27,171 bases of DNA from Pseudomonadota bacterium (lineage in GTDB: Bacteria; Pseudomonadota; Alphaproteobacteria; CACIAM-22H2): positions 1 through 27,171 of the forward strand of contig JAIUNH010000001.1 in NCBI GenBank assembly GCA_020161965.1, given 5' to 3'. How positions within the stretch are numbered: position 1 is the first letter of the stretch; each line of letters begins with the position of its first letter. The notes beneath the pieces were generated by a model, which ran no database searches, was not told the DNA's origin, and was given only the letters and a program-made list of their open reading frames with translations. Position numbers and translations under genes: made by a program. Below are positions 1,162-27,171 of the stretch, one piece after another.

Positions 1162-1199
1162 CATTCGCCGAATTCGGGAATTTCAGGAAGAAACACGCC

Positions 1200-2108: not shown

Positions 2109-2146
2109 ATGCATCGGATTCATTAAACCGCGCGAAGTACGCATTT
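2109..2146 (+). promoter_or_regulatory. Second LysR operator, upstream of galB
   Basis: ATGCATCGGATTCATTAAACCGCGCGAAGTACGCATTT begins right after the lysR stop, has the ATG-N9-CAT dyad, and ends overlapping a candidate -35 (TTGCTT, 2145-2150). Confidence 0.7.
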
Positions 2147-2239
2147 GCTTCACGTCACCCCGGCTCGGATAAGTTTCGCCAACGCTTAGGGAGAAACGCC
2201 GCCCGCTTGCCGCCGACGGCGCAGCATCGGAGTCGAATC

Positions 2240-3660: not shown

Positions 3661-4481
3661 GCCTGACGGTCGCCTTTATCGGCTTCGGCGAAGTCGGGCA
3701 GTTGTTCGGCAAGCAGCTTGCTGCGCAACAAGGCGTTGCCGTGCGCGCGCATGATGTGCTGTTCGACGATGCCGCGAAAGGCCCGGGCCTTAGAACCATT
3801 GCGGCCGAAACGGGTGTGGCCGTTTGCGGTTCGCATGTCGAAGCCTGCCGCGACGCGGAACTTGTGATTTCGGCGGTCACCGCCGATCGCGCGGTCGATG
3901 CCGCACGCCAATGCGCCAATGCGCTGACACCCGATCAGATTTATGTCGATCTGAACTCGATCTCGCCCACGACCAAGGGCCAAGTCGCCGATGCGTTGCA
4001 ACGCGACGCCGCGGGCTTCGTCGAATTCGCCGTCATGGCGCCGGTCGCGGGGCCGGGGATCGCGGTGCCGATCCTCGCGGGCGGTGCGAAGGCGAAGATC
4101 GTCGCGGAGATGCTCAATCCATTCGGCATGAAGATCGACGCGGTCGCCGAGAAGATCGGTGTGGCGTCGGCGACCAAACTCTGCCGTTCCATCGTCATCA
4201 AGGGCATGGAAGCGATCATGGTCGACCTCAAAGCCGCGACCGATGCGACGGGCGTGTGGCCCGCCGTGCTGGCGAGCCTCACCGCATCCTATCCCGGCAT
4301 GGATTGGGCGAAGATCATCGACTACATGCCGCCGCGCGTGAAGCGGCATGGCATTCGACGCGCGGCCGAAATGCGCGAAGCCGGCAAGATGCTGGACGAG
4401 GCGGGGGCGGATGGCGATTTCGCACGCGCCATCGCCGATGCACACGAGCGCTACGCGCGCGCGAACGCAAAGCAAGGGTAG
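3657..4481 (+). CDS. NAD(P)-dependent oxidoreductase, 6-phosphogluconate/3-hydroxyisobutyrate dehydrogenase fold with a DUF1932-like C-terminus
   Basis: GFGEVG Rossmann motif, [17 protein letters not shown] and [10 protein letters not shown]. The GTG start overlaps the galC stop. Confidence 0.85.
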
Positions 4482-4487
4482 GGCGTC

Positions 4488-5780: not shown

Positions 5781-5826
5781 AGTATAAAGTCGATAAAACG
5801 ACGAATAACCCCCCGGGAGGCTCGAC

Positions 5827-6279
5827 ATGGCGAATTTGAACGTCAACGGCGTGGTGCGGCAGATCGATGCGGCACCCGATACACCCTTGTTGTGGGTGCT
5901 GCGCGAACATCTGAAACTGACCGGCACCAAATACGGCTGCGGCGTCGCGGCCTGCGGTGCCTGTACCGTTCATCTCGACGGCGAACCGATCCGCGCTTGC
6001 GTGACGCCGCTGTCGCATGCCGAAGGCAAGCGCGTCACGACGATCGAAGGCTTGCCGGGCGGCGAGAATAATCGCCTGGTCCAAGCCTGGATCGCCGAAC
6101 AGGCGCCGCAATGCGGCTATTGCCAGTCCGGTCAGATCATGCAGGCCGCCGGCTTGCTGGCGAAAACGCCCAAGCCCTCGCGCGAGCAGATCGTCGAGCA
6201 TATGGACGGCAATATCTGCCGTTGCGGCAGCTATGCCCAGATCGTCGCGGCCGTCGAACGCGCCGCGAGCGGGAGGTAA
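5827..6279 (+). CDS. iorA: (2Fe-2S)-binding small subunit, isoquinoline 1-oxidoreductase alpha/CoxS family
   Basis: [20 protein letters not shown] and CRCG cluster motifs; GGAGG SD. Confidence 0.9.
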
Positions 6280-6284
6280 GCGCC

Positions 6285-11939: not shown

Positions 11940-12431
11940 ATGCTCTATCTGAACCGCCGTGCTCTCGCGGCCATCGACGCCCTGATCGTTCTCGCCCGCG
12001 CGCCGGCACCTGGCCGGATGCAACGGTCCGAAATTCAGGCCCGTTTGGGTCTCACCGATCGCTCGTTCGAAAGCGCGCTGTTCGAGCTCGTGAAGGCCGG
12101 CATGGTCGAATCGCGCCGCGGTGTTGGCGGCGGTTACCGCCTGTCGCGCCCGGTCGAGGAATTGACCGTGATGTCCGTGCTGCAAGCCTTGGGCGAAACC
12201 GGCCGTCCCGCGACCGAAGGCGGCGAAGTGCCGGAAGGTGCCGCCAATGTTCCGGCGATCCGCCGTCTGCAGCGCGATTTCTGGAACGGCGTCGAGGCGA
12301 AGGTCGTCGAGATGCTGTCGCGCACCACGCTGGGCGATATCCTCGAAAACGAGGACGCGCTGACGCAGGACGCGGCGCCGGAGACGGCCGAGCGCGTCCG
12401 CGAGCACGCGGACGCAATTCAAGGCGCCTAA
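11940..12431 (+). CDS. Rrf2-family transcriptional regulator lacking cysteines
   Basis: EI..RLGL..R..E..L..LVKAGMVESRRGVGGGYRLSRP.EE.TV..VL winged HTH. ATG at 11940 is preferred over 11871. Confidence 0.85.
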   Translation: MLYLNRRALAAIDALIVLARAPAPGRMQRSEIQARLGLTDRSFESALFELVKAGMVESRRGVGGGYRLSRPVEELTVMSVLQALGETGRPATEGGEVPEGAANVPAIRRLQRDFWNGVEAKVVEMLSRTTLGDILENEDALTQDAAPETAERVREHADAIQGA

Positions 12432-13171
12432 TCCACGTCCTTGCCGCCCAGCCGGGCGGCGAGCGCGGACGAAAGTCCGTTGCTCGCGATAGCCGGTACC
12501 GTGCCCATCGCGGTGCCGGCTTTCGCTTTTTGAGAGATGGACGCTTTTTGGAGGGCGTGTAGCGACGCCGCCAGCGGATCGACGATCGCGATCTTCGTGC
12601 ACGCACGGATCGGTGTGGCGAGCCCCGCAAGCCCCGCACCGCCCAGGATTACGCACTCGGCGCCGTCTTTCGCGGCACTATCCTCGATCGCTTCGACCAG
12701 CGATGCGATCGCTGCGTCGGGATCGGCGGCGATCTCCGCCCCCGAAGGCGCCACGGTGCGGATCCCGGCCAGGGCTTTGTCTTTGCCGGACGCCGCTAAA
12801 ATCTCGCGCAACATGCCGTCCCACAACGCGCCGCCGGTGACGATCGCGTAGCGCTTGCCGCCGGTCGCGTCGACCGCCGCATCGAGCATGCCGACGACCG
12901 GTTTGGTCGATAGCTCGCGAAGGGCGCCGAGACCCGGATCGCCGAAACAGGCGAGCAGCGTGCCGTCGATCGTCGCATCGTGTTTCGCCCACGCGTCGAG
13001 TGCGGCGTGTGCGGCGATCGCGTAGCCCGCGCGCGTGACGATGTATTTGGCGCCGAAGGCGCCGGTCGCGGGCACGATCTCGTCGCCGGGTGCTGCAAGT
13101 TTGCGCGCCTCGCGCGCGACCAGATCGGTGATCGCCGGCGTCGTATTCGGATTCAGCAGCAGGATACGCAT
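12428..13171 (-). CDS. Asp/Glu/hydantoin (allantoin) racemase-family protein A
   Basis: MRILLLNPNT, LACFGDPG, PVVGM, VILGGAGLAG. The second catalytic Cys position is Gly. Confidence 0.88.
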   Translation of the reverse strand: MRILLLNPNTTPAITDLVAREARKLAAPGDEIVPATGAFGAKYIVTRAGYAIAAHAALDAWAKHDATIDGTLLACFGDPGLGALRELSTKPVVGMLDAAVDATGGKRYAIVTGGALWDGMLREILAASGKDKALAGIRTVAPSGAEIAADPDAAIASLVEAIEDSAAKDGAECVILGGAGLAGLATPIRACTKIAIVDPLAASLHALQKASISQKAKAGTAMGTVPAIASNGLSSALAARLGGKDVD

Positions 13172-13180
13172 GTCGTCCCG

Positions 13181-13927
13181 TCAGGGCATGATTTCGCCGC
13201 CATTGGGATGCAGCAGCTGGCCGCAGAAATAGCGCGATTCCGCCGAAGCGAGAAACACGAAGCTGGGCGTCATATCGCCGGGCGTGCCCAGGCGCTTCAA
13301 GGGCAGGGCGGCGGCGTGGTCACGCTTGGCCTTTTCGGGCAGCGGGTCGAAGCCGGTATCGACCAGCCCCGGCGACACGCCGTTCACCAGGATGCCGAAC
13401 GGCGCCATTTCTTTGGCGAGCGCCCGCGTGAAGCCGATCAAGCCAGCCTTGGCGGCGGAATAAGCCGTGTAGTCGCCGCGCCCGATATAGCCAAGCTGCG
13501 AGCACACGGTGATGATGCGCCCCGATTTGCGCGGCTTCATCGCCTTGGCGGCGGCGCGCCCGCACAGGAACGCGCCGCGCAGATGAACGGCGATCATGCG
13601 GTCCCAATCGGCGACCGACATCTTGTCGATCGGCTGCGATTTTTGGATGCCGGCGTTGTTGACCAACACGTCCAGGCGGCCGAAATACTTCTTATGCGCG
13701 GCGAACAGCGCATCGACTTGGCGCTCGTCGGTCACGTCGGCACGCACGGCAATGGCCTTGCGGCCTAGTTTGACGATCGCTTTGACGGTTGCTTCGGCGG
13801 CGCGCGGATTGTCGAACCAGGCGATCGTCACGTCGGCACCCTCGCGCGCATAGGCCAAGGCGACGGCGCGGCCGATCCCCGTATTGCCGCCGGTCACCAG
13901 CGTCTTCAACCCCGTCAAACGACCCAT
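13181..13927 (-). CDS. Classical short-chain dehydrogenase/reductase (FabG-like fold)
   Basis: TGGNTGIG, NNAG, YSAAK, VNGVSPG. ATG at 13927 has a strong GGAGGAG SD. Confidence 0.92.
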   Translation of the reverse strand: MGRLTGLKTLVTGGNTGIGRAVALAYAREGADVTIAWFDNPRAAEATVKAIVKLGRKAIAVRADVTDERQVDALFAAHKKYFGRLDVLVNNAGIQKSQPIDKMSVADWDRMIAVHLRGAFLCGRAAAKAMKPRKSGRIITVCSQLGYIGRGDYTAYSAAKAGLIGFTRALAKEMAPFGILVNGVSPGLVDTGFDPLPEKAKRDHAAALPLKRLGTPGDMTPSFVFLASAESRYFCGQLLHPNGGEIMP

Positions 13928-14795: not shown

Positions 14796-15662
14796 GTGAT
14801 CGTCGTTTTCGGCTCGATCAATATCGACTTCCTGCTGCGCGTCGCGCGATTGCCGGGCGAAGGCGAAACCGTTGCGGGGCAAGACGTCGCTTTGGCGCCG
14901 GGCGGGAAGGGCGCCAATCAAGCGCTCGCCGCGCGCAAGGCGGGAGCGGCGGTGCGCTTGATCGGCGCCGCCGGCAACGACGCGTTCGCGGATTTGGCGC
15001 TCGCCAATCTCGTCGCCTCTGGCGTCGATCTGTCGGGCTTACGCCGTGCCAAGCGGCCGACCGGGGCGGCGTTCATCACCATCGACGATGCCGGGCGCAA
15101 TCACATCGTGCTATCGCCGGGCGCCAATCAAGAAGCGCGCGCCGCCGATTTCACGCCCGTCGCGGGCGGCATTCTGCTGGTGCAGCGCGAACTGCCCGAA
15201 GGCGAAACGCTGGCGGCACTGCGCAAAGCCAAAGATGCGAGCATGACGACGATCGTCAACGCAGCGCCCTCGGCCGGGTTTGCGGCCACGATGCGCGATC
15301 TCGCGGATATCGTCATCGCCAACGAACACGAAATCGCCGATGTCGCGGGCCGCGTCGATACGCCCGAAGCGCTCGCCGTCGAACTCGCCAAGACCGGCAA
15401 GACGATTGTGCTCACACTCGGCGCCGAAGGTGCCCTTGCCGCCAAGGGCGGTCAAATGTGGCGCGCCCCTGCCAGCAAGGTGAACGTCGTCGACACGACC
15501 GGGGCGGGCGACACGTTCTGCGGCGCATTCGCGGCGGCCTTGGACGAAGGCAAGGATATCGGTGCTGCGTTGGCTTTCGCGGCGGCTGCCGGATCGCTTG
15601 CCTGCACGGGGCTGGGCGCGCAGAGCGCCACGCCCGATCGGGCCGCTATTTTGAAAGCGTGA
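14796..15662 (+). CDS. rbsK: Ribokinase (PfkB family)
   Basis: GSINID, PGGKGANQA, QRE, NAAP, NEHE and DTTGAGDTF motifs. GTG start 4 nt after the racemase B stop. Confidence 0.78.
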   Translation: MIVVFGSINIDFLLRVARLPGEGETVAGQDVALAPGGKGANQALAARKAGAAVRLIGAAGNDAFADLALANLVASGVDLSGLRRAKRPTGAAFITIDDAGRNHIVLSPGANQEARAADFTPVAGGILLVQRELPEGETLAALRKAKDASMTTIVNAAPSAGFAATMRDLADIVIANEHEIADVAGRVDTPEALAVELAKTGKTIVLTLGAEGALAAKGGQMWRAPASKVNVVDTTGAGDTFCGAFAAALDEGKDIGAALAFAAAAGSLACTGLGAQSATPDRAAILKA

Positions 15663-16323
15663 TTTGGTGGCGGTAGATGCCGGCCGGTTCCGCACCGACG
15701 GCACCGAGTTTCGCCAGCGTGGCGGGCGATAGGATATCGCGCACGGTCTTGGCGAATTCGGGGATGTCGCCCCAGCCTTCGACCAGCAGCGCTACGCGCG
15801 GCCGCGCGTTCGACGTGCCGCGCGCTTTCTCCTCCGCATTCACCTCGCCGCTCGCCGCTTCATCGGCGATGATCGCAGCAAGTGCGGCGATCCCCGGTGT
15901 CGCCATCAGCCGATCGAACAAGGGGGCGAGCGACGCGACATGTGCCGCCTCGCCGCCGGGTGCGGTGTTGTAGCGCAACGTCGCCAGCAAACCGCCATCG
16001 GCCGCCCCGCGATTGACCGCCACGCCGCAAAGCGAGCGTGCAACGTTGCGGAAATGCTGGACGGCTTTCAGCGTCCACGGCGTGGGCGAATTCAACCGCG
16101 CGCGATAATCGGGGCCCGCGACGACGCCGGCGTCGCGCGTTTCATAGATATTGAAAAAACCGAGATCGGCGTCGAGGGCTGCAAAGCGCCGCCCGCGCAC
16201 GAAGCCGGGGATCGCGACGCGCTCGGGCATGTGCTCGCCGCCATGCCACGCGTAGAAATCGGCGAGACCTTCGGGAACGATATCGTGCCAGATTGCGACG
16301 GCACCATTGCCTTGCAAACTCAT
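15646..16323 (-). CDS. Hypothetical dimeric alpha/beta-barrel protein (DUF4286/EthD-like)
   Basis: W.DI....ADFYAWH..EHMPERVAIPGF..GRRF pattern. ATG overlaps the DHDPS-family stop (ATGA). Confidence 0.7.
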   Translation of the reverse strand: MSLQGNGAVAIWHDIVPEGLADFYAWHGGEHMPERVAIPGFVRGRRFAALDADLGFFNIYETRDAGVVAGPDYRARLNSPTPWTLKAVQHFRNVARSLCGVAVNRGAADGGLLATLRYNTAPGGEAAHVASLAPLFDRLMATPGIAALAAIIADEAASGEVNAEEKARGTSNARPRVALLVEGWGDIPEFAKTVRDILSPATLAKLGAVGAEPAGIYRHQITLSK

Positions 16324-17243
16324 CCGATCAGTCCTTGTTTGCGGCACAAGGCCGCGATTTCGGCGCGCTCGGCGTCGGAGATGCCAAGCTGCGGTTCGCG
16401 CACGGCCGCACTGGGGAAGATGCCTTGCAGGCGCAGCACTTCCTTCATGCGTGGGCGGAAATCGCGGATCGGGGCGCGCCAGCAATAGCGCGCGATGGGG
16501 CCGAGCTTGTCCCAGATCGCTTTCGCCTTCGCGAGTTCGCCGGCCCGGCAAGCATGGATCATCGCCCGGAGTTCGGCGGTCGCGGTGCCGGCGAAACCGA
16601 TCAACGCACCGTCGCAGCCCATCAACTGCGCTTCGAAGATGAACGTGTCGCTGCCGGTCAGCACGCCGATTTTGCGCGGCAGCTTAGCGACGGCCTCGAC
16701 CGCTTGGAGCGTTTGCGTCGCGTCGAAGGAGGATTCCTTCATCGCGATCAGTTGCGGGATTTCCGCCATCGCCTGCAGAATATCCGGCGTGTAGTCCGGG
16801 CCCCAGCCTTTGGGGAATTGGAAGCAGATGATCGGCAGGCCGGCCGCGTCGGCGATCGCGCGGTGATAGCGCACGATCATGTCGGCGGGGACGGGCGCGC
16901 CCGAGAAAGTCGGGAAGGCCGGGAACACCGCGAAGCCCTCGGCGCCGTTCTTGGCGAGCTTCTCGGCTTTCGCGGCTGCCGCCTTTGTCGAACCGCCGCC
17001 GGCCCCCGACAGGAACGGCACGCGCTTGGCGATGGCCCGCGAACAGACGCGCGCGACTTCGTAGATTTCGTTGTCGTCGAGCGAGACGACTTCGGACGCA
17101 TCCATGTTCATGACGATCGCGTCGGGTTTTTGGCCCGCGATCCAATCCATGTAGCGTTCGAGGGTCGCCCAATCGATCGACTGGTCGTCTTTCATCGGCA
17201 GGAAGGGGGCCGCGATCAGGCCGGAGAAGGGCCGGGGGAGCAT
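16320..17243 (-). CDS. Dihydrodipicolinate synthase/N-acetylneuraminate lyase family protein with an atypical active site
   Basis: G.IAAPFLPM.DD.SID, RVP.LSGAGG.ST, Schiff-base Lys in AMKESS, VLTGSD, G.DGALIG, KEVL.LQG, VREP. Confidence 0.88.
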   Translation of the reverse strand: MLPRPFSGLIAAPFLPMKDDQSIDWATLERYMDWIAGQKPDAIVMNMDASEVVSLDDNEIYEVARVCSRAIAKRVPFLSGAGGGSTKAAAAKAEKLAKNGAEGFAVFPAFPTFSGAPVPADMIVRYHRAIADAAGLPIICFQFPKGWGPDYTPDILQAMAEIPQLIAMKESSFDATQTLQAVEAVAKLPRKIGVLTGSDTFIFEAQLMGCDGALIGFAGTATAELRAMIHACRAGELAKAKAIWDKLGPIARYCWRAPIRDFRPRMKEVLRLQGIFPSAAVREPQLGISDAERAEIAALCRKQGLIG

Positions 17244-17253
17244 GATGCTTGCC

Positions 17254-18048
17254 TCAATATTGGATGACGCCGCGGCGCATGAAGCACTCGGTGATTTCTT
17301 CGCAATATTCCGAGAATTTCGCGCTGGCGATGACTTCCTTGTTGCGGGGGCGCGGCAGGTCGATGTCGATGATGCGGTCGATCTTGCCGGGGCGCGGCGT
17401 CATGACGATCACGCGATCGGCCAAAGCCACGGCCTCCGAAATCCCGTGCGTCACGAACAGCGTCGTATGGCGCCGGTCGAGCCACAATTTTTCGAGATCG
17501 ATGCGCATCTGTTCGCGCGTCAGCGCGTCCAACGCGCCGAACGGCTCGTCCATCAGCAGCAGCGGCGGGTCATGGATCAGACCGCGCACGATGGCGCAGC
17601 GCTGGCGCATGCCGCCCGACAATTCGCGCGGCATGCGGTCGGTGAAGTCGCCCAACCCGACCTTGCCGAGCAGCCGTAGCGCTTCGTCGCGATATTTGGC
17701 GGGATCGAGCCCGCGCAACTCGAGCTGGACGAGAACGTTGTCCAGCACGTTGCGCCAGTCGAGCAGGACGGGCGCTTGGAACACGATGCCGATTTCGGTC
17801 TGCGGGCCGGTCACGTCGCGGCCCGCCACCTTCACGTTTCCCGAGGAGTTGCGCAGCAGCCCAGCGACGATGCGCAGCAACGTGCTTTTGCCGCAGCCCG
17901 ACGGCCCGACGATCGCGACGAATTCTCCCGCCGCGATCGTCAGGTCGACATGTTCGATCGCGTGCGTGACCATGTCTCCACGCTGGAAGACATGCGCCAC
18001 GCCCGCGATATCGACGGACGAACCGACTTTGTCGATTTCGTTACGCAC
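17254..18048 (-). CDS. NitT/TauT-family ABC transporter ATP-binding protein
   Basis: GPSGCGKST Walker A, LSGGMRQR signature, LLLMDEPFGALD Walker B, VTH switch. Confidence 0.95.
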   Translation of the reverse strand: MRNEIDKVGSSVDIAGVAHVFQRGDMVTHAIEHVDLTIAAGEFVAIVGPSGCGKSTLLRIVAGLLRNSSGNVKVAGRDVTGPQTEIGIVFQAPVLLDWRNVLDNVLVQLELRGLDPAKYRDEALRLLGKVGLGDFTDRMPRELSGGMRQRCAIVRGLIHDPPLLLMDEPFGALDALTREQMRIDLEKLWLDRRHTTLFVTHGISEAVALADRVIVMTPRPGKIDRIIDIDLPRPRNKEVIASAKFSEYCEEITECFMRRGVIQY

Positions 18049-19027
18049 TCGGCATGAACTCGTTGGTGTGGAACGCGGTCCAGGGCTGGTTCGTCTGCAA
18101 TTCGCGATACTGCTTCAGCAGATCCAGCGTCTGTTCCCAATCCTTCTGCGCGCCGAAGCCGATGCGGCCCTTCGAATTCGCCGAATCCAGCAATTCGAAA
18201 TCGACCAGCATCTGATCGAGGGTCGAGGCCGCGTTGAGGTCGGGCTTGACCTTCAGGGCGGCGTCCACGGCCGCTTTTGGGTTCTTCTTCGATTCCTCCC
18301 ACGAACGCACGCTGGCGCGCACGAAGCGGCGGACCATGTCGGGCTTGTCGCGGATCGTGGAAAGCTGCGTCAGGATCGTCATGCCGACGATATTGGCGCC
18401 GTGATCGGCATAGCGCAGCGCATGCGGTTCCTGGCCCTGATACTTGATCAGGAAGAACTGATCGTCGGCACCGCCGAGCAACGCGTCGGCGCGCTTTTCC
18501 AGCACCGCCGCGACCTTGGCCGCCGGATCGACCTGGACGAAGCGGATCTTGCTCATATCCAGCTTGTTGTGCGCGGCGAGGGCGCGGAACAACTGGCCCA
18601 GCGGATCGCCCGGCGACACGGCCAGCGACTTGCCTTCCAGATCCTTGGGCGTACGGATTCCGGCCGAGGCGAGCGACACGACCGAGAAGCCGGTCGAGTT
18701 CAGCAGCGACATGACCGACTTGATCTCCGCCCCGCGCGCGGCAAGGCCGATCAGGCTGGAGGAATCCGCCATGCCGAACGTGTCGGACCCGGCGGCGACG
18801 ACCTGTACCGTGTTGGCCGAGCCGCGGCCTTCGTTCAGCGTGATGTCGATTCCGGCGTCGCGGAACGCGCCAATCTCGCGGCCGTAGTAGTACGGCACGT
18901 GCAACCCGCCGAGATACCAGTTGAAGCGCAGCGAGACCGCGTCGCGTGCCTGCGCGATGGCAGGCGAGAACGGTGCGGCGGCGAGGGCCAATGCGCCCAT
19001 GCCGAATTTGCGGCGTGTGATTTTCAT
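18041..19027 (-). CDS. NMT1/THI5-like ABC substrate-binding protein with a probable Tat signal
   Basis: TRRKFG signal, LRFNWY..G.H.P.Y, G.F.DAGIDI...EG.GS. ATG at 19027 follows GGGAG. Confidence 0.9.
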   Translation of the reverse strand: MKITRRKFGMGALALAAAPFSPAIAQARDAVSLRFNWYLGGLHVPYYYGREIGAFRDAGIDITLNEGRGSANTVQVVAAGSDTFGMADSSSLIGLAARGAEIKSVMSLLNSTGFSVVSLASAGIRTPKDLEGKSLAVSPGDPLGQLFRALAAHNKLDMSKIRFVQVDPAAKVAAVLEKRADALLGGADDQFFLIKYQGQEPHALRYADHGANIVGMTILTQLSTIRDKPDMVRRFVRASVRSWEESKKNPKAAVDAALKVKPDLNAASTLDQMLVDFELLDSANSKGRIGFGAQKDWEQTLDLLKQYRELQTNQPWTAFHTNEFMPSA

Positions 19028-19077
19028 GGCGTTTTCTCCCATTTGTTTTGTTCGTTGGTTGGCCGTTGTTTTCGTAT

Positions 19078-19866
19078 TCAAGCGCCGGTCACGCCCGCGG
19101 GCCGTTGCGAGACGTGCCAGGGGATGGCGAGCCGTTCGATCAATTCGACGGCGTAGTAGACGACGAGGCCGATGACGCTGAGGATGATGATGATCGCGAA
19201 GACCATCGCCGTTTCGAACTGCCCGTTATATTGGAGCAGCAGATAGCCGAGGCCCCGATCGGCGGCGACGAACTCGGCAACGATCGCGGCCGTGGCCGAC
19301 AATGCGGCCCCGACCTTCAACCCGGTGAAGATGTCGGGCAGCGCTTGCGGCAATTGGATCGTGCGGAACAGTTTCCATTCCGAAGCGCCCGTGGTGCGCG
19401 CGAAATCGGCGATTTCGGGATCGACCGATTTGAAGCCCGCGACGCTTGCCACGACGATCGGGAAGAAGCACAGCAGGAAAACGATGATGACCTTCGGCGC
19501 GAAACCGAAGCCCAGCCAAATGATGAATAGCGGGGCAATCGCGATCTTCGGGATGATCTGCAGGAAGACCACGACCGGATAGATCGATTGCTCGACGAAG
19601 CGGCTGCGCGCGACGACCAACGCCAGCGGCACGCTGACCACGATCGACAGCAGATAGCCCGCGAGCAATTGGCGCGAGGTGACGTAAGCCGCATCCATCA
19701 CGGCGGGTGCACGTTTCAGGAATTCGACCCAAACCTTGGTCGGCGGCGGCAGCAGATATTCCTTGATGCCGAACAGCTTCACGCCGAATTCCCACAGCAG
19801 CAGCAGGATCGCGAAAACGATCAGCGGCCCGGCACGCCGCTTCGTCCAATCGAGCAGGGCGGTCAT
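19078..19866 (-). CDS. NitT/TauT-family ABC transporter permease
   Basis: LLPPP..V, QIIPKIAIAPL..IWLGFG, EAA-like loop and LP.ALPDIFTGLKV. Confidence 0.93.
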   Translation of the reverse strand: MTALLDWTKRRAGPLIVFAILLLLWEFGVKLFGIKEYLLPPPTKVWVEFLKRAPAVMDAAYVTSRQLLAGYLLSIVVSVPLALVVARSRFVEQSIYPVVVFLQIIPKIAIAPLFIIWLGFGFAPKVIIVFLLCFFPIVVASVAGFKSVDPEIADFARTTGASEWKLFRTIQLPQALPDIFTGLKVGAALSATAAIVAEFVAADRGLGYLLLQYNGQFETAMVFAIIIILSVIGLVVYYAVELIERLAIPWHVSQRPAGVTGA

Positions 19867-20312
19867 GTCGCCTCCGTCTTCGGCAAATCAAACGTGCCGA
19901 ATTCGGCGGGCGTGTTGATCTCGATGAGTTCGAGATCGTCCGAACGCGCCAGCACGTTATGCGCCACGCCGGCAGGCTGCGACAGGCAATCGCCTGCGCG
20001 CACGGTGATCTTGCCTTCGCGGCCGCGATAGCCGAATTCGATCCAGCCTTTCATGACGAACACGAAGTGGCCGGTCATGTCGTGCCAGTGCCAGCCGGTT
20101 TCGCCCGGGAACGGCTTGATCGCGCGGATATGCTTCGCACCGATCTTGCCGCCGCTGGCGGCGGCCAAGCCCAGATCGCGATACTCCACGTCGGCACGCG
20201 GACCGTCGCGGGTGAACGGCGCGTCGCCGGAAACGAGCGCGAGTTTGCTCAACGCCTCGGCGAAGGGCAGCGGACCGGCATAGGTCGGTTTCGTGGCGGC
20301 GTCAGACGGCAT
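19863..20312 (-). CDS. Cupin-domain protein
   Basis: GWHWH...HFVFVMKG (motif 1) and GD..SQPAGVAHN (motif 2). ATG at 20312 has a GGAG SD and overlaps the iclR stop. Confidence 0.85.
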   Translation of the reverse strand: MPSDAATKPTYAGPLPFAEALSKLALVSGDAPFTRDGPRADVEYRDLGLAAASGGKIGAKHIRAIKPFPGETGWHWHDMTGHFVFVMKGWIEFGYRGREGKITVRAGDCLSQPAGVAHNVLARSDDLELIEINTPAEFGTFDLPKTEAT

Positions 20313-21171
20313 TGGCAAGCTCCGGCGGAAGGGCGGCGGGCGAGCGGCCGACAAGGCCGGCGCGCAAGGGCCAAATGGCGGAAAGTTCGTGGGCGGCGGC
20401 GGCAAGGGTGCGCGCGAATTCGGCGCGCCGCTCGGCCGGGAAGCGGCTGATGGGGCCGGCAAGGCTCAACGTGCCCGCAACGGGTGCTTCCGCTTGCGGC
20501 GAAACGCGGAACGTGACCGCGACGGCCGCCGTGCCAAGCTCCGCTTCCTCCAGCGCCAAACCGTAGCCACGCGTACGGGTCTCGCGCAGTTTCGCTTTGA
20601 GGGCGTCGACGGTGCGCACGACGTTCGGCCCGAACAAGGCGGCGCGCGGGAAGCCGGCGGCGGTGACAATGCGCACCGCGTCTTTCTCGGGCAGCGTCGA
20701 TAGCCAGATGGCGCCCACGGCGGTCGGATGCAACGCGGCGAGGAACCCGGTGTCGGGATCGTAGCGCAGGCCGTAGCGCGCACCCTGGGCCTTCGCGACC
20801 CAGATCAGGCGTTCGTTATCGACGATGGTGAGGCGCGCGAGTTCGCCGCTGTCGCGCGCGAGCTTGTCGAGGATCGGCTGCGCCACGTCGCTGATGCCAA
20901 GCCCTGCGAATTGCCGCAAGCCCATCAGGCCGAGTTTCATCGTGAGTTCGTAATCGGCGGAGGTCGCTGCCTGTTGGACGAAGCCTTTTTCGATCAGCAT
21001 CGCCAGCAGGCGATGCACGGCACTTTTCGGCAGCTTCAAACGGTCGCCGATATCGGTGATCGACAGCCCGCCGGGATTGGCCGCGAGCAGATCGAGAATA
21101 TCGAGCGTGCGGCGCGCGGCGGATTTGCCGCCGGCCGTCTTGTCGCCCACCGATTTGCGGGTGCCCGCCAA
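20302..21171 (-). CDS. IclR-family transcriptional regulator
   Basis: RRTLDILDLLA...LSITDIGDRLKLPKSAVHRLL..L...GFV.Q HTH, H.TAVG, RG.GLA.EE...G..AVAV. TTG start follows GGGGAG. Confidence 0.93.
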   Translation of the reverse strand: MAGTRKSVGDKTAGGKSAARRTLDILDLLAANPGGLSITDIGDRLKLPKSAVHRLLAMLIEKGFVQQAATSADYELTMKLGLMGLRQFAGLGISDVAQPILDKLARDSGELARLTIVDNERLIWVAKAQGARYGLRYDPDTGFLAALHPTAVGAIWLSTLPEKDAVRIVTAAGFPRAALFGPNVVRTVDALKAKLRETRTRGYGLALEEAELGTAAVAVTFRVSPQAEAPVAGTLSLAGPISRFPAERRAEFARTLAAAAHELSAIWPLRAGLVGRSPAALPPELANAV

Positions 21172-21211: not shown

Positions 21212-21294
21212 TAGTTCCAGTTTGTGCAGGACCGGATGGGGAGTCAAGGCGGACGAACGCACAATGATGCGTTTTGTACGAAGTTCGGGGTAGG

Positions 21295-22074
21295 ATGATC
21301 CGCATGCGCCCCCTCCGCATTCTCCGCACCATTTTGCTCGTTTTGGCTGTGCTGCTCGCCGGACCCGGCATCACCGCCCTGTCGCGCGCGTCCGACAACA
21401 ACGATTGGCGGCGCGCAAGCCGCGAGGCGATGGGGCTGGCGCCCGATCCGGCCGTGGCGCGCCAGGCGATGATCCGTGTCTATGGCGCGCGCACGCGCGG
21501 CTGGCGCGGGGCGTTTGGCGTTCACACTTGGGTTTCCGTGAAGCCGGAGAATGCCGCGACGTGGACGACCTACGAGATCGTCGGCTGGCGCTCGCGCTGG
21601 GGCGGCGATGGGCTGGCCGTGTCGCAAGGGGCACCGGACCGACGCTGGTTCGGCGCCGAGCCCGAGCTCTACGCGCATCTGGAAGGACCGGGCACGCAGG
21701 AAGCGATCGCACGCGCGGTCGCGGCGGCCCAGGCCTATCCCTATCGCAACGAGTACGGTCTGTGGCCGGGGCCGAACTCGAACACGTTCACGGCGATGGT
21801 CGCGCGCGCCGTGCCGGAGCTTCGCCTCGATCTGCCGCCCACGGCGATCGGCAAGGATTATCTCGGCGGCATGACGCTCGCCGCCCCGGCGCTGTCGGGG
21901 ACGGGCGTGCAATTCTCGCTGTTCGGCTTGCTCGGCCTCGTCGTGGCCGCCGAGGAAGGCGTCGAACTTAATGTCGCGGGGCTCACCTTCGGCATCGATC
22001 CGCTGGGAATGGGCGTCAAACTCCCCGGCATTGGCCGCATCGGACCGACGCAGGATCCCGCGCGGAATTTCTAA
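21295..22074 (+). CDS. DUF3750-domain protein (probably exported or membrane-anchored)
   Basis: N-terminal hydrophobic helix, GVHTWV, YEIVGWR, WFG..P, Y.LWPGPNSNTF, LPPTAIGKDY. Start is 21295 or 21304. Confidence 0.78.
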   Translation: MIRMRPLRILRTILLVLAVLLAGPGITALSRASDNNDWRRASREAMGLAPDPAVARQAMIRVYGARTRGWRGAFGVHTWVSVKPENAATWTTYEIVGWRSRWGGDGLAVSQGAPDRRWFGAEPELYAHLEGPGTQEAIARAVAAAQAYPYRNEYGLWPGPNSNTFTAMVARAVPELRLDLPPTAIGKDYLGGMTLAAPALSGTGVQFSLFGLLGLVVAAEEGVELNVAGLTFGIDPLGMGVKLPGIGRIGPTQDPARNF

Positions 22075-22077
22075 TTT

Positions 22078-22896
22078 TCAGTGCTCGTCGACACCCGCCG
22101 GATTGGCGGCCATGGCGTCGTCGAGTAGCTCCGACACGCGCCGGCACGCGTCGTTATAAGGCTGCGAGGTGCGGAACGCCGTTCCGCGCGGATAGCCCGC
22201 ATCGACGCCAAGCTCGCCGACGATGCGGCCCGGGCGCGCGGCCATGACGACGATCCGCGTGGAGAGATAGACGCTTTCATAGACCGAGTGGGTGACGAAC
22301 ACGACGGTCCAGCGTTGCTTGTTCCATAGATCGAGCAGATCGTTGTTGAGCTTGAAGCGCGTTATTTCGTCCAGCGCCGCGAAGGGCTCGTCCATCAGCA
22401 GCACTTTGGGTCGCATGACGAGCGCGCGCGCGATTGACACGCGCATCTTCATGCCGCCCGACAATTCGCGCGGGTAGGATTTCGCGAAGCGCTCCAGCCC
22501 GACCATCTTCAGCGCCTCGGCGACGCGGTCAGGCACTTCCCCTTTCGGCCGATCTTTCAGCGTGAAGGGCAGAGCGACATTGTCGAACACCGTCGCCCAG
22601 GGCATCAAGGTCGGCTCTTGGAACACGAAGCCGATTTCACGCTCGGGCTTGCCCGCGGAATCGTACATCGCCGTCGGCCATTCGATCTCGCCTTCGCTGG
22701 CTTCGCCCAACCCCGCGATCATGCGCAACGCCGTCGACTTGCCGCAGCCCGAAGGGCCGAGCAGCGAAATGAACTCGCCGGGATGAATGTCGAGATCGAG
22801 CCCGCGGATCGCTTCGGTGCCGTTGGAGAAGACCTTGCGAATTCCCTTGAGCCGGACGAGCGGGCGGGCGGGGACGGAGCCGTCGGCCATGGTCAT
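22078..22896 (-). CDS. NitT/TauT-family ABC transporter ATP-binding protein
   Basis: GPSGCGKST, LSGGMKMR, LLMDEPFAALD, VTH. ATGA overlap with the creatininase-family stop. Confidence 0.95.
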   Translation of the reverse strand: MTMADGSVPARPLVRLKGIRKVFSNGTEAIRGLDLDIHPGEFISLLGPSGCGKSTALRMIAGLGEASEGEIEWPTAMYDSAGKPEREIGFVFQEPTLMPWATVFDNVALPFTLKDRPKGEVPDRVAEALKMVGLERFAKSYPRELSGGMKMRVSIARALVMRPKVLLMDEPFAALDEITRFKLNNDLLDLWNKQRWTVVFVTHSVYESVYLSTRIVVMAARPGRIVGELGVDAGYPRGTAFRTSQPYNDACRRVSELLDDAMAANPAGVDEH

Positions 22897-23708
22897 GCGC
22901 CGTACTTCTTGAGGTTCGTGAGCGGATAGCGATGTACTTCCGCGAGCAGGCGATTGAAACCGGCGGCGGCGTGATCGATACACGCCTTGCCGCGTGCGGC
23001 ATCGGCATCGGCCGCGTTGCCGCAAGCGCCCGCCGGATTCAGATCTTGCGTCTGCCAACCGAAGCCGATGCGCCCTTCGGGCATCAGGAATTCGTATTCC
23101 TTTTCCATGGCGACGGAGATCGACACGAAATCCGCCGCGTGTTCCATCTGCACGAGGTCCGGACGGCTCGCGAGCATCATCGAGGTTTCGACCGAGCCGC
23201 CATGGATGCCGTGGGTGAGTTCGAGTTCGGGGAACAGCCCGTCGGGCACGCCGAAGGAGAACGTCGCGCAAGTGACGACGAACATGTCGAGGCGCACGCG
23301 CAGATCGCGCGCCACGATATCCAGCACCTGCGGCTGGCCGCCATGTGAGTTGACGATGACGAGCTTGCGGATTCCGGCGCGATGCACGCATTCGCCCAGT
23401 TCCGTCCACATCCGGATCAGCGTTTCGGCCGAGAACGACAACGTGCCCGGAAAGGCGAGATGCTCGTTCGACTTGCCGACCGGCATGGCGGGCAGAACGG
23501 TCACCGGCAATTCGGCAGGCATGGTCTCGACCGCGCGCGCAACGACGGCTTCGTTGAGGCACGCATCGACATAGACCGGCAGATGCGGCCCGTGTTGCTC
23601 GATGGCCGCAACCGGCAGTACCGCGATCGTGTCCTTCGGCAGGCGCGCGAATTCGGCCGTGGTCATGTCGCGCCACCAGCGGCGCGGCAGGCGGGGGGAT
23701 GTTGTCAT
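22893..23708 (-). CDS. Creatininase-family amidohydrolase
   Basis: AIEQHGPHLP..VD, S.EH..FPGTLS, NSHGG and HGG..ETS metal-binding motifs. Confidence 0.9.
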   Translation of the reverse strand: MTTSPRLPRRWWRDMTTAEFARLPKDTIAVLPVAAIEQHGPHLPVYVDACLNEAVVARAVETMPAELPVTVLPAMPVGKSNEHLAFPGTLSFSAETLIRMWTELGECVHRAGIRKLVIVNSHGGQPQVLDIVARDLRVRLDMFVVTCATFSFGVPDGLFPELELTHGIHGGSVETSMMLASRPDLVQMEHAADFVSISVAMEKEYEFLMPEGRIGFGWQTQDLNPAGACGNAADADAARGKACIDHAAAGFNRLLAEVHRYPLTNLKKYGA

Positions 23709-23713
23709 ATCGA

Positions 23714-24514
23714 TCAATTCTCGCGTTTCACTTCGCTCTCGTGCCAGCGATGCAGCAGCGCCCATTGCAGCCACATCGTGGCGTAGAACAGCACGATGCC
23801 GAAGGCCGAGAGCATCAACAGGGCAGCGAACATGCGCGGCACGTTCAGCATGTTGCCGCTTTCGATGATGCGCCAGGCAAGGCCCGTGGCCGAACCCGAA
23901 CCGGCCGCGAACTCCGCCACGACCGCGCCGATCAAGGCGAGACCGCTGGAGACACGCACGCCACCCAAGATGTAAGGCAGCGCCGAAGGAAGCTGGAGAT
24001 AGCGGAACTTCTTCCAGCCCGAGGCGCCGTAGAGATCGAAGAGGTTTTTAAGCCCGTGATCGGCGGAGCTAAGCCCGATCGTGGTGTTCGACAGGATCGG
24101 AAAGAACGCGACGATCCAGGCGAGGATCAAGAGCGCGAGCCACAGCCGGTCGAGCCCGATCCAGATGATGATGAGGGGGGCAATAGCGACAACAGGTGTG
24201 ACCTGCAACACGACCGCATAGGGCCACAGCGTGCGCTCGATCGTGCGGTTGAGCGTGAACAACACGCCTAAGGTCATACCGGTGACGACGGCCGCAAGGA
24301 ACGCGACGACCGTGACACGCGTGGTGAACCACAGCGAGCCGAGCAACGACGGCCCGTCGTTCCAGAACGCCATTGCGATTAGGCTGGGGGCGGGCAACAC
24401 GAATTTGGGAATCTTCCACGCCGCGACCGACCATTCCCAGAAGGCGAGAAAGGCGATCCCGGCCGCGACCGGCAGAACCCAGCGCGAATGCTTCGACCAG
24501 ACCGCGCCGATCAC
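23714..24514 (-). CDS. NitT/TauT-family ABC transporter permease
   Basis: VLPAPS, QVTPVVAIAPL, LQLPSALPY, GAVVAEF. The GTG start overlaps the Rieske stop (GTGA). Confidence 0.9.
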   Translation of the reverse strand: MIGAVWSKHSRWVLPVAAGIAFLAFWEWSVAAWKIPKFVLPAPSLIAMAFWNDGPSLLGSLWFTTRVTVVAFLAAVVTGMTLGVLFTLNRTIERTLWPYAVVLQVTPVVAIAPLIIIWIGLDRLWLALLILAWIVAFFPILSNTTIGLSSADHGLKNLFDLYGASGWKKFRYLQLPSALPYILGGVRVSSGLALIGAVVAEFAAGSGSATGLAWRIIESGNMLNVPRMFAALLMLSAFGIVLFYATMWLQWALLHRWHESEVKREN

Positions 24515-25542
24515 GCCGGCACCGCGCGCGATTCCGTTTCGCCATGCGCTTCCAGCAATTCGCGCAAACGCCGGCGCATGACCAAGCCCGGCTTGTCCGA
24601 CGGCATGTGGAATTCCTCGCCATCGACGACCGCGAGCGGCACGTCCGGGCTGCAGCCTTCCAGGACCAACTTGTCCTCGTCGACGATCTTGCGGTCGAAG
24701 GCGATGACCTGCTCGGTCGAGACGTCCGCTTCCGTATCGTTGCGGAAGCAAAACTGAATCACCATCGTGCGCGCATCTTCCATCGGCGTCGCCGCGGTGA
24801 CGATCGTGTGGCGCAGACCGTTGGGATAGGTGATGCCCAAACGCCGCGCGAAGGGCATGAACCAGGTATTCGTGCGCTTTCGCGTGGTCGTGCCCTCGGC
24901 GATCTTCAGCGCGTCGGCGGAATCGTCGCCGCGCACGTCGACTTCGCTTTCGACGTAATAGTCGAAGCCGTTGGCGTGTTCGGTGACGATGGGCATTTGT
25001 TCGGGCAAAGGCCTTGACGTGCTGCCGAACGTGCCGCGATGGACGAAGGCGGGGTGCGCCACGTCGAAGGAATTCTCCATCAGGCGCAGCGCGCCGATCT
25101 TCCATTCCTCGTAGAACTGATCGACGCGGCGGAAGCCCGCCTCGTTCGCTTCGGGGATTTCGGGTAAGGGCGTCAACGGTTCGCCCAGCGCCACCCAAAT
25201 ATGGCCGTAGCGTTCGGCGACGCGATAGCCGTCGACAGCGATCTTGCCCGTCGCGGTCGGGTTCTCGCGCTGGGGAATGCGCACGCATTTGCCCGAGCAA
25301 TCGAACGTCCAGCCGTGATAGCCGCAGACGAGACTGCCCGTCTCGTCGAGATAGCCGAGCGAGAGCTTAGCCGAACGATGCGGGCAGCGATCGGCGATGG
25401 CGGCGAGCGTGCCGTCGGGTTTGCGCCACACGACGATATCCTCGCCCAGCAAGCGGAAGGGCTTCTGCCCATCGTCGAGATGCGAAGCCCGGAATACCGG
25501 GTACCAGAAGCGGCGCAGGATCGGCTGGCGGGTGGGCAGCAT
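24511..25542 (-). CDS. Rieske non-heme iron oxygenase alpha subunit A (VanA/NdmA-like demethylase class)
   Basis: CPH...CGYHGW Rieske ligands, ENSFDVAHPAFVH mononuclear-iron motif and EDK Asp ligand. Confidence 0.92.
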   Translation of the reverse strand: MLPTRQPILRRFWYPVFRASHLDDGQKPFRLLGEDIVVWRKPDGTLAAIADRCPHRSAKLSLGYLDETGSLVCGYHGWTFDCSGKCVRIPQRENPTATGKIAVDGYRVAERYGHIWVALGEPLTPLPEIPEANEAGFRRVDQFYEEWKIGALRLMENSFDVAHPAFVHRGTFGSTSRPLPEQMPIVTEHANGFDYYVESEVDVRGDDSADALKIAEGTTTRKRTNTWFMPFARRLGITYPNGLRHTIVTAATPMEDARTMVIQFCFRNDTEADVSTEQVIAFDRKIVDEDKLVLEGCSPDVPLAVVDGEEFHMPSDKPGLVMRRRLRELLEAHGETESRAVPA

Positions 25543-25547
25543 GCGCG

Positions 25548-26588
25548 TTACTCCGCCGCTTGCGCGGGACGCGTATGGCGCGTGGCTTCGGTTTCGCCAT
25601 GAGTGGCGAGAAGCTCGCGCAGCTTGCGGCGCATCACGAGGCCGGGCTTGTCCGACGGCATATGCTGTTCGAATCGATCGTCGAGCGGCACATCGGGATC
25701 GCAGGATTCGAGGATCACCTTATCCTCCAGCGTCACCGCGCGGTCGAAGGCGTTGACGTCCTTGGCGGGGGCTTGTTCCTCGGTATCCGAGCGATAGCAC
25801 CATTGGACGAGCATGGTCATGTCGTCGGTCATCGGCGTCGCCGCCGTGATGATCGTGTGGCGCAGGCCGTTCGGATACGTGATGCCGAGGCGCCGCACGA
25901 ACGGCATGAACCAAGTGTTCTTGACCCGGCGCACCGTGTCGCCCGGCGTGGCGCTGAGCACCTTCGACGCGAGATCTCCGCGGATCTTCACGGGAATTTC
26001 GGCGCGCAGATGGAAGCCGTAATCGAATTCCTCGATCTCGTTCTTCGCGGGGATCGGTTCCGACGCTTCGCCGAAGGTCTTGCGATGCGTGAAGGCGACA
26101 TGCGCGTTGTCGAAGGAATTCTCCATCAAACGCAAGGCGCCGATCTTCCAGGATTCATAGAACTGGTCGATATGGCGCAGGCCCGGCTCGTCGGCCTCAG
26201 GGATATGCGGCAATTCGGCCAGCGGTTCGCCGAGCACGACCCAAATATGGCCGTAACGTTCGGCGGCCTGATAGCCGCCGATGCGCATCTTGCCGGTCGC
26301 GGTCGGGTTTTCGCGCTGGGGAATGCGCACGCATTTACCCGAGCCCTCGAAGGTCCAGCCGTGATAACCGCAGACGACGTTGCCGTCCTGCAGGAAGCCG
26401 AGCGAGAGCTTGGCCGAGCGATGCGGGCAGCGATCCTCGATGCAGGCGATGCCGCCGTCGGCTTGACGCCACAGGACGATATTCTGTCCCAGCAGCGTAA
26501 ACCCGAAGGGTTTGTCTTCCGTCACATCCGTCGCGCGCGCGACGGGGTACCAGAAACGGCGCAGCACCGGTTGCTTGGTGTTCAGCAT
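25548..26588 (-). CDS. Rieske non-heme iron oxygenase alpha subunit B, a tandem paralog
   Basis: CPH...CGYHGW, ENSFDNAHVAFTH and EDK; colinear with 24511-25542; GGAG SD. Confidence 0.92.
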   Translation of the reverse strand: MLNTKQPVLRRFWYPVARATDVTEDKPFGFTLLGQNIVLWRQADGGIACIEDRCPHRSAKLSLGFLQDGNVVCGYHGWTFEGSGKCVRIPQRENPTATGKMRIGGYQAAERYGHIWVVLGEPLAELPHIPEADEPGLRHIDQFYESWKIGALRLMENSFDNAHVAFTHRKTFGEASEPIPAKNEIEEFDYGFHLRAEIPVKIRGDLASKVLSATPGDTVRRVKNTWFMPFVRRLGITYPNGLRHTIITAATPMTDDMTMLVQWCYRSDTEEQAPAKDVNAFDRAVTLEDKVILESCDPDVPLDDRFEQHMPSDKPGLVMRRKLRELLATHGETEATRHTRPAQAAE

Positions 26589-26619
26589 GAGGATCGCTCC
26601 CGATCTTCGTGTCCGCGGC

Positions 26620-27171
26620 TTAGAGGCCGCGGCGCTTGTTGATGAAGTCCAGCGTGAAGCCCGAACGCCAGTCGAAATCGGGCTTGTACAGGCCCTGATC
26701 GCGCATCATCTCGAAATGGCCCTTGAAGCGCTCTTCGGTGATCGCGCCGATGCCAAATTTCTTGGCGTCGTCGTTCACGATCAGCTCGTATTTCTTCATC
26801 GTCTCGACGGCGAAGGCCATCAATTCGGGCGTGTTGTCGGGGTTGTCCTTCTGGATCAGCGCGTTTCCGGCGGTCGGATCCTTCAGGTAATCGATCCAGC
26901 CGTCGATCGTGCCGTCGACGAAGCACTGCACGTTCTTCGGCTTTTCCTTGATGTACTTCGTCGGGAAGACGATCAGCGACGAGTAGGAGAGATAGCCGAA
27001 ATCGGCGAACAGGAAGATCTTCGGATCGACATTGCCTTCCGTCTTCACCTTGAACGGCTCGCTCGATACGAAGCCTTGCTGGATCGCGTTCTTGTCGATC
27101 AGCCACGGGCCCATCTGGAACGTGTAGGGACGGATTTGCGCATCCGTGAATCCGTAGCGCGCGCGCAGGAA
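26620..27171 (-). CDS. C-terminal part of an NMT1/THI5-like ABC substrate-binding protein (start beyond the right edge)
   Basis: Open in frame to base 27171 (FLRARYGFTDAQIRPYTFQMGPW...QQGFVSSEPF...FLFADFGY..YS...GIGA.T.ER); TAA at 26620-26622. Confidence 0.85.
   Translation of the reverse strand, partial: FLRARYGFTDAQIRPYTFQMGPWLIDKNAIQQGFVSSEPFKVKTEGNVDPKIFLFADFGYLSYSSLIVFPTKYIKEKPKNVQCFVDGTIDGWIDYLKDPTAGNALIQKDNPDNTPELMAFAVETMKKYELIVNDDAKKFGIGAITEERFKGHFEMMRDQGLYKPDFDWRSGFTLDFINKRRGL

Follow-up and report, generated by a model that had tools for sequence, protein, structure and literature searches.

What does a bacterial operon do that mixes the genes of an importer with those of two oxygenases and a hydrolase? 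The question is raised by one end of a 27,171-nucleotide window, the whole stretch of DNA analysed here, which is the entire contig C288 of a Tagaea genome (Rhodospirillales; assembly G000, 581 contigs, 3.94 Mb, 85% complete). Six minus-strand genes run from position 27171 to position 22078, and the genes of an ATP-binding cassette (ABC) importer are interspersed with those of two Rieske oxygenases and a creatininase-family hydrolase. The operon is probably the Tagaea version of a widespread module, in which an NMT1-type ABC importer and one to three Rieske oxygenases of a dedicated family take up a purine- or pteridine-type N-heterocycle and oxidise it toward xanthine or urate. The gene set has been known as a kind since 2017–2020. 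The interleaved creatininase-family hydrolase, the duplicated oxygenases, and the lack of a riboswitch are new here. The genes of the operon and its convergent neighbour are, in order:

26620..27171, minus strand: substrate-binding protein (SBP) of the NMT1/THI5 type, periplasmic, first gene; the C-terminal 183 amino acids (aa) are present, the contig ending before the 5′ part (Pfam NMT1, E 5.8e-5)
25548..26588, minus strand: R1, Rieske oxygenase of 346 aa, in the alpha-only VanA/Ndm/Hpx size class (Pfam Rieske 1.5e-25, VanA_C 1.4e-18)
24511..25542, minus strand: R2, Rieske oxygenase of 343 aa, paralogue of R1 (Pfam Rieske and VanA_C)
23714..24514, minus strand: ABC permease of the NitT/TauT type, 266 aa, with a GTG start at 24514 (Pfam BPD_transp_1 4.4e-20)
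22893..23717, minus strand: creatininase-family metal-dependent amidohydrolase, of 271 aa if read from ATG 23708 and 274 aa if read from TTG 23717 (Pfam Creatininase 5e-71)
22078..22896, minus strand: ABC ATPase, 272 aa, last gene, from ATG 22896 (Pfam ABC_tran 2.9e-34)
21274..22074, plus strand: DUF3750 gene, neighbour, convergent with the operon

The first-pass annotation had described this arrangement at 22078–27171 and had read it as a single transcription unit. The arrangement is confirmed, and the unit is borne out by six same-strand genes with junctions of -4 to 31 nt. Measured between start and stop positions, the junctions are 31 nt for SBP–R1, 5 nt for R1–R2, -4 nt for R2–permease, -4 nt (TTG 23717) or +5 nt (ATG 23708) for permease–hydrolase, and -4 nt for hydrolase–ATPase. 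No internal terminator-like or promoter-like signals beyond chance were found in the operon. It ends at 22078, because the next gene, encoding DUF3750, is convergent; the two stop codons are separated by 3 nt, and the pairing is kept in four other Tagaea genomes.

The window cannot be extended within its own assembly, as the missing 5′ part of the SBP gene lies on no other contig. Across 11.6 kb the window aligns collinearly with a complete Tagaea chromosome, G018, with 91% nucleotide identity and 96–99% protein identity. In G018 the SBP gene heads the operon and encodes 325 aa from its ATG (12033 of locus L013), with the signal peptide MKLRLATLLAAGLLAAAPVAAQ and a Pfam NMT1 match at E 8.9e-26; the fragment in the window is 96% identical to this protein. 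Upstream of it are a 157-bp divergent region, an oppositely oriented FAD_binding_4 gene, and then SelO. An orthologue of the FAD gene is present on no other contig of the window's assembly. Because the G018 operon starts at the SBP gene, the operon consists of exactly six genes and has no reductase. The higher identity of the proteins (96–99%) than of the DNA (91%) between the genomes indicates purifying selection on the encoded proteins. The order R2–permease–hydrolase–ATPase, followed by the convergent DUF3750 gene, occurs in G018, G015, G001, and G008 with 96–99% amino-acid identity. The order SBP–Rieske–permease–hydrolase–ATPase is also found in Pigmentiphaga litoralis and in a Burkholderiales metagenome-assembled genome (MAG), at 54–73% identity. 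This conservation of gene order is well beyond chance.

The module was surveyed by scanning one genome per species with an alignment of R1 homologues. The 80 loci analysed, at 46–96% identity, are spread over Alpha-, Beta-, and Gammaproteobacteria, Cyanobacteria, and Verrucomicrobia. Neighbouring genes were collected by tblastn and by clustering of all open reading frames, and were assigned with Pfam and NCBIfam. The family comprises at least 484 confirmed loci and, among the matches listed, at least 120 clusters at 53% identity or more. It is patchy, as close R1 homologues occur in only 2 of 300 genomes of the same class. NMT1-type ABC genes lie beside the R1-family gene in 62 of the 80 loci, and 27 loci have one or two further Rieske copies. 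A creatininase-family gene occurs in 27 loci, the PRK12393 amidohydrolase (nearest model 8-oxoguanine deaminase) in 29, a 6V42-like FAD_binding_4 protein in 22, a cupin in 18, and an oxygenase of the IPNS-like 2-oxoglutarate (2OG) type in 18. A RutB/BiuH-like cysteine hydrolase (17 loci), a cytosine-deaminase-like hydrolase (15 loci), and PuuE-like, AtzE-like, and CocE-like hydrolases (8–10 loci each) are also recurrent. By their family assignments, the recurring partners are all C–N hydrolases of nitrogen-rich rings. The unit of Herbaspirillum is self-contained, comprising a riboswitch, a VanB-type reductase, an SBP, a 2OG oxygenase, a Rieske oxygenase, an ATPase, a permease, and PRK12393, after which housekeeping genes follow.

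The NMT1 motif RNA regulon of Proteobacteria was reportedly described by Weinberg in 2017. In Rfam this RNA is RF03054, the xanthine riboswitch, and it lies directly upstream of the operon in five of the seven betaproteobacterial loci tested, those of Polaromonas, Ramlibacter, Uliginosibacterium, and two Herbaspirillum. Its scores are 42.6–50.7 bits against a gathering threshold of 36. Sixteen of the 80 loci carry the conserved core of RF03054, GAGTAGAAGC...GGNCATTGCTC, on the same strand as the operon, with about 0.1 matches expected by chance, and five of these core-motif loci also contain a creatininase-family gene. Xanthine and urate are ligands of this RNA, which switches off the genes that it controls (Yu and Breaker 2020, PMC7373994). 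The genes tied to it encode NMT1/THI5-like proteins, tauA-type ABC proteins, hcaE (Rieske), PDR, pcbC-like 2OG dioxygenases, and PRK12393 (PMC7373994). Yu and Breaker linked this gene set to purine oxidation and stated that the functions were not established (PMC7373994).

The Tagaea operon comprises the same families and is an operon of the same kind, and the Rieske and SBP proteins of the regulon are 48–51% and 42–47% identical to its own. In contrast, it lacks the riboswitch, the PDR/VanB reductase, PRK12393, and the pcbC-like 2OG oxygenase; the latter three are found neither in the operon nor within ~10 kb of it in G018. Elsewhere in the window's assembly, PRK12393 has matches at only 26–29% identity, and 2OG-oxygenase homologues are present on other contigs. 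The Tagaea operon adds the interleaved creatininase-family hydrolase, a family unmentioned in PMC7373994, and the duplicated oxygenase. A separate arrangement is seen on the Variovorax sp. PDNC026 plasmid (L020), where two core motifs, at 9725–9782 (minus strand) and 9904–9960 (plus strand), face apart in one intergenic region, the plus-strand motif being just upstream of an R1 homologue of 45% identity. The pair may represent divergent riboswitch-controlled operons.

The substrate class proposed in the first-pass annotation, an N-heterocycle, therefore draws support for a purine or pterin from three sides: the xanthine riboswitches upstream of homologous operons, the neighbouring hydrolases and deaminases (guanine/8-oxoguanine-deaminase-like, cytosine-deaminase-like, RutB/BiuH-like, AtzE-like, and PuuE-like), and the divergent 6V42-like gene.

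R1 and R2 have intact metal motifs, namely the Rieske motif CPH...CGYH and the mononuclear-iron motif NSFDxAHxAFxH. In R1 these are CPH...CGYH at residue 54 and NSFDNAHVAFTH at residue 157. The two proteins are 64% identical overall and 35% identical across residues 176–225, immediately past the iron-binding motif, which is consistent with different substrates or positions of attack. The best PDB matches of R1 are NdmA (8e-34, full length) and SxtDIOX (8e-33); the saxitoxin hydroxylase SxtT is also near, and DdmC is far weaker. The closest named protein on annotated plasmids is HpxD, with 33% identity to R1, and neither R1 nor R2 has an NCBIfam equivalog above cut-off.

A FastTree phylogeny of 114 sequences, which includes the NdmA/B-like proteins of a genuine P. 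putida plasmid Ndm cluster and has HpxD as outgroup, places the 111-member R1 family in one clade (node value 99) without the NdmA/B-like proteins and HpxD. The R1/R2 duplication lies inside a 20-member subclade and is common to Telmatospirillum-like and other Tagaea loci. This subclade also contains the Pigmentiphaga and Burkholderiales operons of SBP–Rieske–permease–hydrolase–ATPase order. The riboswitch-linked Rieske proteins form its sister subclade of 38 members. R1 is 48–51% identical to the riboswitch-linked proteins versus 30–33% to NdmA/B and HpxD. Membership of R1 and R2 in the NdmA/NdmB group is rejected, as both fall outside the Ndm clade. Orthology to HpxD is likewise rejected on the 33% identity, the position of HpxD outside the clade, and the absence of an adjacent reductase here.

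HpxDE, the Moco-independent hypoxanthine/xanthine hydroxylase of Klebsiella and Pantoea, resembles the Tagaea oxygenases in having an alpha-only Rieske protein of ~345 aa, and a purine ring is also the presumed substrate for R1 and R2. Its VanB/PDR-type partner is matched in seven homologous loci of the R1 family. In Pantoea hpxE follows hpxD, whereas the Tagaea operon has no adjacent reductase; HpxDE, for its part, comes with neither an ABC importer nor a hydrolase of its own.

A second related module is present in the window's own assembly, on contigs C428 (~1–7400) and C488 (~640–2350); in other Tagaea genomes (L015, L043) it forms one continuous cluster. On C428 the gene of a cytosine-deaminase-like hydrolase is accompanied by those of three 6V42-like FAD proteins in tandem, two Flavodoxin_2 proteins, and an R1 paralogue (51–52% identity), and C488 contains a creatininase paralogue (57%) and an NMT1 SBP.

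The source of electrons for R1 and R2 probably lies outside the operon. The earlier claim that the unit contains no reductase holds across the whole operon as seen in the complete G018 chromosome, where no VanB-like gene lies within ~10 kb on either side. The first-pass annotation had also suggested looking beyond the contig end for a reductase, a deaminase, or an FAD oxidase; through G018 an FAD-type gene was found there and a reductase was not. The nearest VanB/PDR-type reductase in G018 is ~29 kb away and adjoins a VanA-like oxygenase, which shares 31% identity with R1 in the N-terminal domain only. Its orthologue, on contig C577, is the sole VanB/PDR-type reductase found in the window's assembly. 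A VanB-type reductase lies in the cluster in seven of the 80 homologous loci, which identifies this type as the partner of the family, and about 90% of the loci have none. A reductase outside the cluster is thus the rule and no peculiarity of the Tagaea operon. Flavodoxin_2 genes (NAD(P)H:quinone-reductase-like) are found near Rieske genes without a VanB-type reductase in L040, L041, L043, L049, L055, L077, L091, and L092.

The hydrolase belongs to the creatininase family (PF02633, 239 bits against a cut-off of 31). It is below the NCBIfam cut-offs for creatininase (TIGR04448, 90 of 235 bits), MftE (103 of 172), and IolN (57 of 245). A true creatininase (EC 3.5.2.10) and MftE are rejected on these cut-offs, and the creatininase motif HYEN is also lacking, with HGGQ in its place. 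Formamide hydrolysis of the ArfB kind, proposed from the first reading of the sequence, is not borne out, and an ArfB-like FAPy deformylase (NF033501) is rejected, as the protein scores 21.3 bits where 180 are required. Alignment with P. putida creatininase shows that the residues at the metal-ligand positions are kept, as EQHGPH, the D of YVD, the H of SHGGQ, and HGGSVETS; we take the ligands (Glu, His, Asp, His) to be those of 1J2T. The Tagaea hydrolase thus shares its fold family and the aligned binuclear-metal ligand residues with creatininase, MftE, ArfB, and IolN, whereas its gene context is unrelated to the creatine, mycofactocin, riboflavin, and inositol pathways.

Homologues of the hydrolase with ~50% identity on annotated plasmids lie in cysteine hydrolase–cupin–creatininase–ABC–amidase–HpxZ clusters, in BMP-type nucleoside ABC systems, and in nucleoside deaminase contexts. 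A tight trio of an isochorismatase-like cysteine hydrolase, a cupin, and a creatininase-family gene occurs in L037, L060, L062, L067, L079, L031, and L084, and on a Roseomonas mucosa plasmid (L017, 7788–9801). The trio is often directly upstream of a Rieske gene. A lone cupin and cysteine-hydrolase pair (59–60% identity) is present on contig C39 of the window's assembly. A literature search for creatininase together with Rieske found nothing relevant. Creatinine-type enzymes have been proposed, in a hypothesis paper, to act on guanidinohydantoins from oxidised guanine (PMC12623156), and such compounds are another candidate for the hydrolase step.

Creatininase-family matches are found in all 20 other Tagaea genomes (G001–G020), with 3–8 in each, and number six in the window's assembly. 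An orthologue of the operon's hydrolase is present in only five of the 21 Tagaea genomes (G000, G001, G008, G015, and G018). Three loci with 83% R1 identity (L023, L024, and L025, ~12100–13750) have the FAD gene divergent from SBP, R1, R2, permease, and ATPase; they lack the hydrolase gene, and the permease adjoins the ATPase. The hydrolase is therefore an accessory part of the module. A tRNA gene lies downstream of the ATPase in L023 and L025. L025 is labelled as an 'Asaia bogorensis' MAG, yet its locus resembles Tagaea or Telmatospirillum, and the label may be wrong.

The transporter is a NitT/TauT-family set, consisting of an NMT1-type SBP with a signal peptide, one BPD_transp_1 permease, and one ABC_tran ATPase. 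Among substrate-specific NCBIfam models, SsuA, TauA, and NrtA are far below their cut-offs, and the permease is below those of SaoP, SsuC, NtrB, and TauC. An adjoining operon at 15646–21171 of the window, headed by an IclR gene at 20302–21171, has its own ABC permease and ATPase, with 32% and 43% identity to those of the six-gene operon. Two related importers therefore stand side by side.

Taken together, these data suggest the following course. The NMT1 protein, the permease, and the ATPase, whose fold families are clear, would import the base, with a purine- or pteridine-type ring as the probable ligand. R1 and R2 would each oxygenate the ring system, with electrons from a VanB/PDR-type reductase encoded elsewhere, for which C577 carries the only one in the assembly. 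As they differ mainly in a 50-residue segment by the catalytic iron, the two oxygenases probably attack different positions or different congeners. The creatininase-family enzyme, a binuclear-metal amidohydrolase by its family chemistry, could then open a cyclic amide or a cyclic guanidine/urea bond in the oxidised product. The divergent 6V42-like flavin oxygenase of G018 may act on the same scaffold, as its conserved neighbourhood suggests. For the oxygenation itself, ring C-hydroxylation of the HpxD kind, which would create lactam functions, is favoured over N-demethylation, because the family is separate from Ndm and no formaldehyde-handling gene is among the identified recurrent neighbours.

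Several points weigh against assigning the operon to purine or pteridine oxidation. RF03054 is found by Rfam neither in the window, nor in G018, nor in the seven nearest alphaproteobacterial loci. The window contig ends before the operon leader, which is known from G018; this leader gives nothing relevant at E values up to 10, and L013 has no Rfam match at the gathering threshold. Three cyanobacterial loci and one Bacillales-labelled locus also show no riboswitch in Rfam. The ligand evidence therefore reaches the Tagaea operon by homology and shared architecture, and its source is the sister subclade, where oxygenase identity is only 48–51%. No assayed member of the R1/R2 family and no assayed creatininase protein of this branch was found in the literature searched, and sequence cannot separate hydroxylation from demethylation. 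The hydrolase, being accessory, may serve another step. The window also contains gallate/protocatechuate genes according to an unchecked sequence-only annotation, so that a role in aromatic-acid metabolism is conceivable.

The alternatives to this reading differ in how well they withstand the same evidence. It is unlikely, though worth weighing, that R1 and R2 are position-specific NdmA/NdmB-like N-demethylases of methylated purines (such as 7-methylxanthine derived from 7-methylguanine) or of other methylated bases released by nucleic-acid turnover. Formaldehyde and xanthine would be the products of such enzymes, and a by-product, either formylated or with its ring opened, would be the substrate of the hydrolase. 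Among solved structures NdmA matches R1 best, and tandem paralogues that differ near the active site recall NdmA, which acts at N1, and NdmB, which acts at N3. NdmABCDE of Pseudomonas putida likewise contains tandem paralogous alpha-only Rieske oxygenases. Its end product, xanthine, is the ligand of the riboswitch that silences homologous operons of the R1 family, and deaminases of the guanine/8-oxoguanine type are frequent partners of that family. However, R1 and R2 are outside the Ndm clade, on a long branch and with ~30% identity, and at 33% the hydroxylase HpxD is just as near. The Tagaea operon contains neither NdmD, the reductase of the Ndm cluster that bears an additional Rieske domain, nor the NdmC, nucleobase:cation symporter, and formaldehyde dehydrogenase genes of that cluster. 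An NdmD-type reductase, NdmC/E, and formaldehyde-handling genes, all of which the genuine Ndm cluster has, are also missing among the identified gene families present in at least 7 of the 80 loci. Oxidative N-dealkylation of a methylated base, as proposed at first, is therefore not borne out by the sequence comparison.

A Mo-free dismantling of pteridines (pterin, lumazine, or the pterin moiety of folate) is distinctly unlikely as the specific function. According to this alternative, R1 and R2 would hydroxylate C6 and C7, the hydrolase would open the cyclic diamide to give xanthine-8-carboxylate and then xanthine, and the 6V42-like enzyme would act early, on folate-derived pterin. The lead comes from the gene divergent from the operon in G018. 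Its FAD_binding_4 product matches PDB 6V42 at a phmmer E of 5e-75, and a model of the protein (19 homologues, pLDDT 84) aligns with 6V42 at Z 47.3 over 457 residues and 32% identity; the next-best fold family, the D-lactate dehydrogenases, reaches Z 30. The entry is titled 'flavin oxygenase with cofactor bound involved in folate catabolism'. The match to 6V42/6V43 (VAO/PCMH fold) covers the full length, although the identity is low and the Tagaea homologue lies outside the window, whose contig ends first. No paper on 6V42, its substrate, or a folate-catabolism flavin oxygenase was found in the literature searched. The co-occurrence of 6V42-like proteins in 22 of the 80 loci and of the cytosine-deaminase family, which includes pterin deaminases, is in line with pteridine breakdown, and two sequential ring hydroxylations would suit two paralogous oxygenases.

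Known pteridine breakdown ends in xanthine, as in cluster I of Cupriavidus sp. LA-1, which converts pterin and lumazine to xanthine (PMC12391406), and this would explain feedback by a xanthine riboswitch. Cluster I is a possible functional analogue of the Tagaea operon, with uptake, two ring hydroxylations, opening or rearrangement of a cyclic diamide, and xanthine as end product. In contrast, its enzyme families are entirely different. This only characterised bacterial route uses a Mo-dependent dehydrogenase (LuDH), an amidase-signature isomerase, a prFMN decarboxylase, and purine/pyrimidine permeases (PMC12391406), whereas the Tagaea operon has no decarboxylase. The minimal Herbaspirillum module, with its reductase, SBP, 2OG oxygenase, Rieske oxygenase, ABC proteins, and PRK12393, also seems too small for ring contraction.

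A broader form of the same idea is tentative and rather unlikely. The Rieske pair, the creatininase-fold hydrolase, and the 6V42-like flavin oxygenase might together represent a Mo-independent route that leads from pteridines (folate/pterin breakdown products) or from oxidised guanine derivatives to xanthine, through regiospecific heteroaromatic hydroxylations and the opening of a cyclic diamide or iminohydantoin. To our knowledge, neither such a hydroxylation by Rieske oxygenases nor such a ring opening by creatininase-fold enzymes has been described for these families.

The weakest alternative is a VanA-like O-demethylation or hydroxylation of a lignin-derived methoxy-aromatic acid, with NMT1-type import as in phthalate-type ABC systems and products that feed the gallate/protocatechuate genes of the window. 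The Pfam VanA_C domain of R1 and R2, the annotated gallate and LigAB-type genes, and the VanA-like Rieske and VanB-type reductase pair ~29 kb away in G018 speak for it, but it is highly improbable, because the partners recurring in the 80 loci are C–N hydrolases and deaminases without ring-cleavage enzymes and the homologues are controlled by a purine-sensing riboswitch; in addition, the VanA-like protein resembles R1 in one domain alone, and DdmC scores far under NdmA or SxtT.

Uptake and oxidation of a purine- or pteridine-type base thus remains the probable function of the Tagaea operon. The module, which many bacteria of soil and fresh water carry, cyanobacteria among them, is one of a small number of riboswitch regulons without assigned enzyme reactions. 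The Tagaea operon is a compact form of it, with an importer, two oxygenases, and one hydrolase, and counterparts exist in the cultured bacteria Pigmentiphaga litoralis and Herbaspirillum. When the reductases encoded in the Herbaspirillum clusters are added, the result is a defined protein set for reconstitution. Solving the module would explain how bacteria scavenge nitrogen from purine- or pterin-like bases without Mo enzymes, and would give a large branch of the creatininase family its first function.

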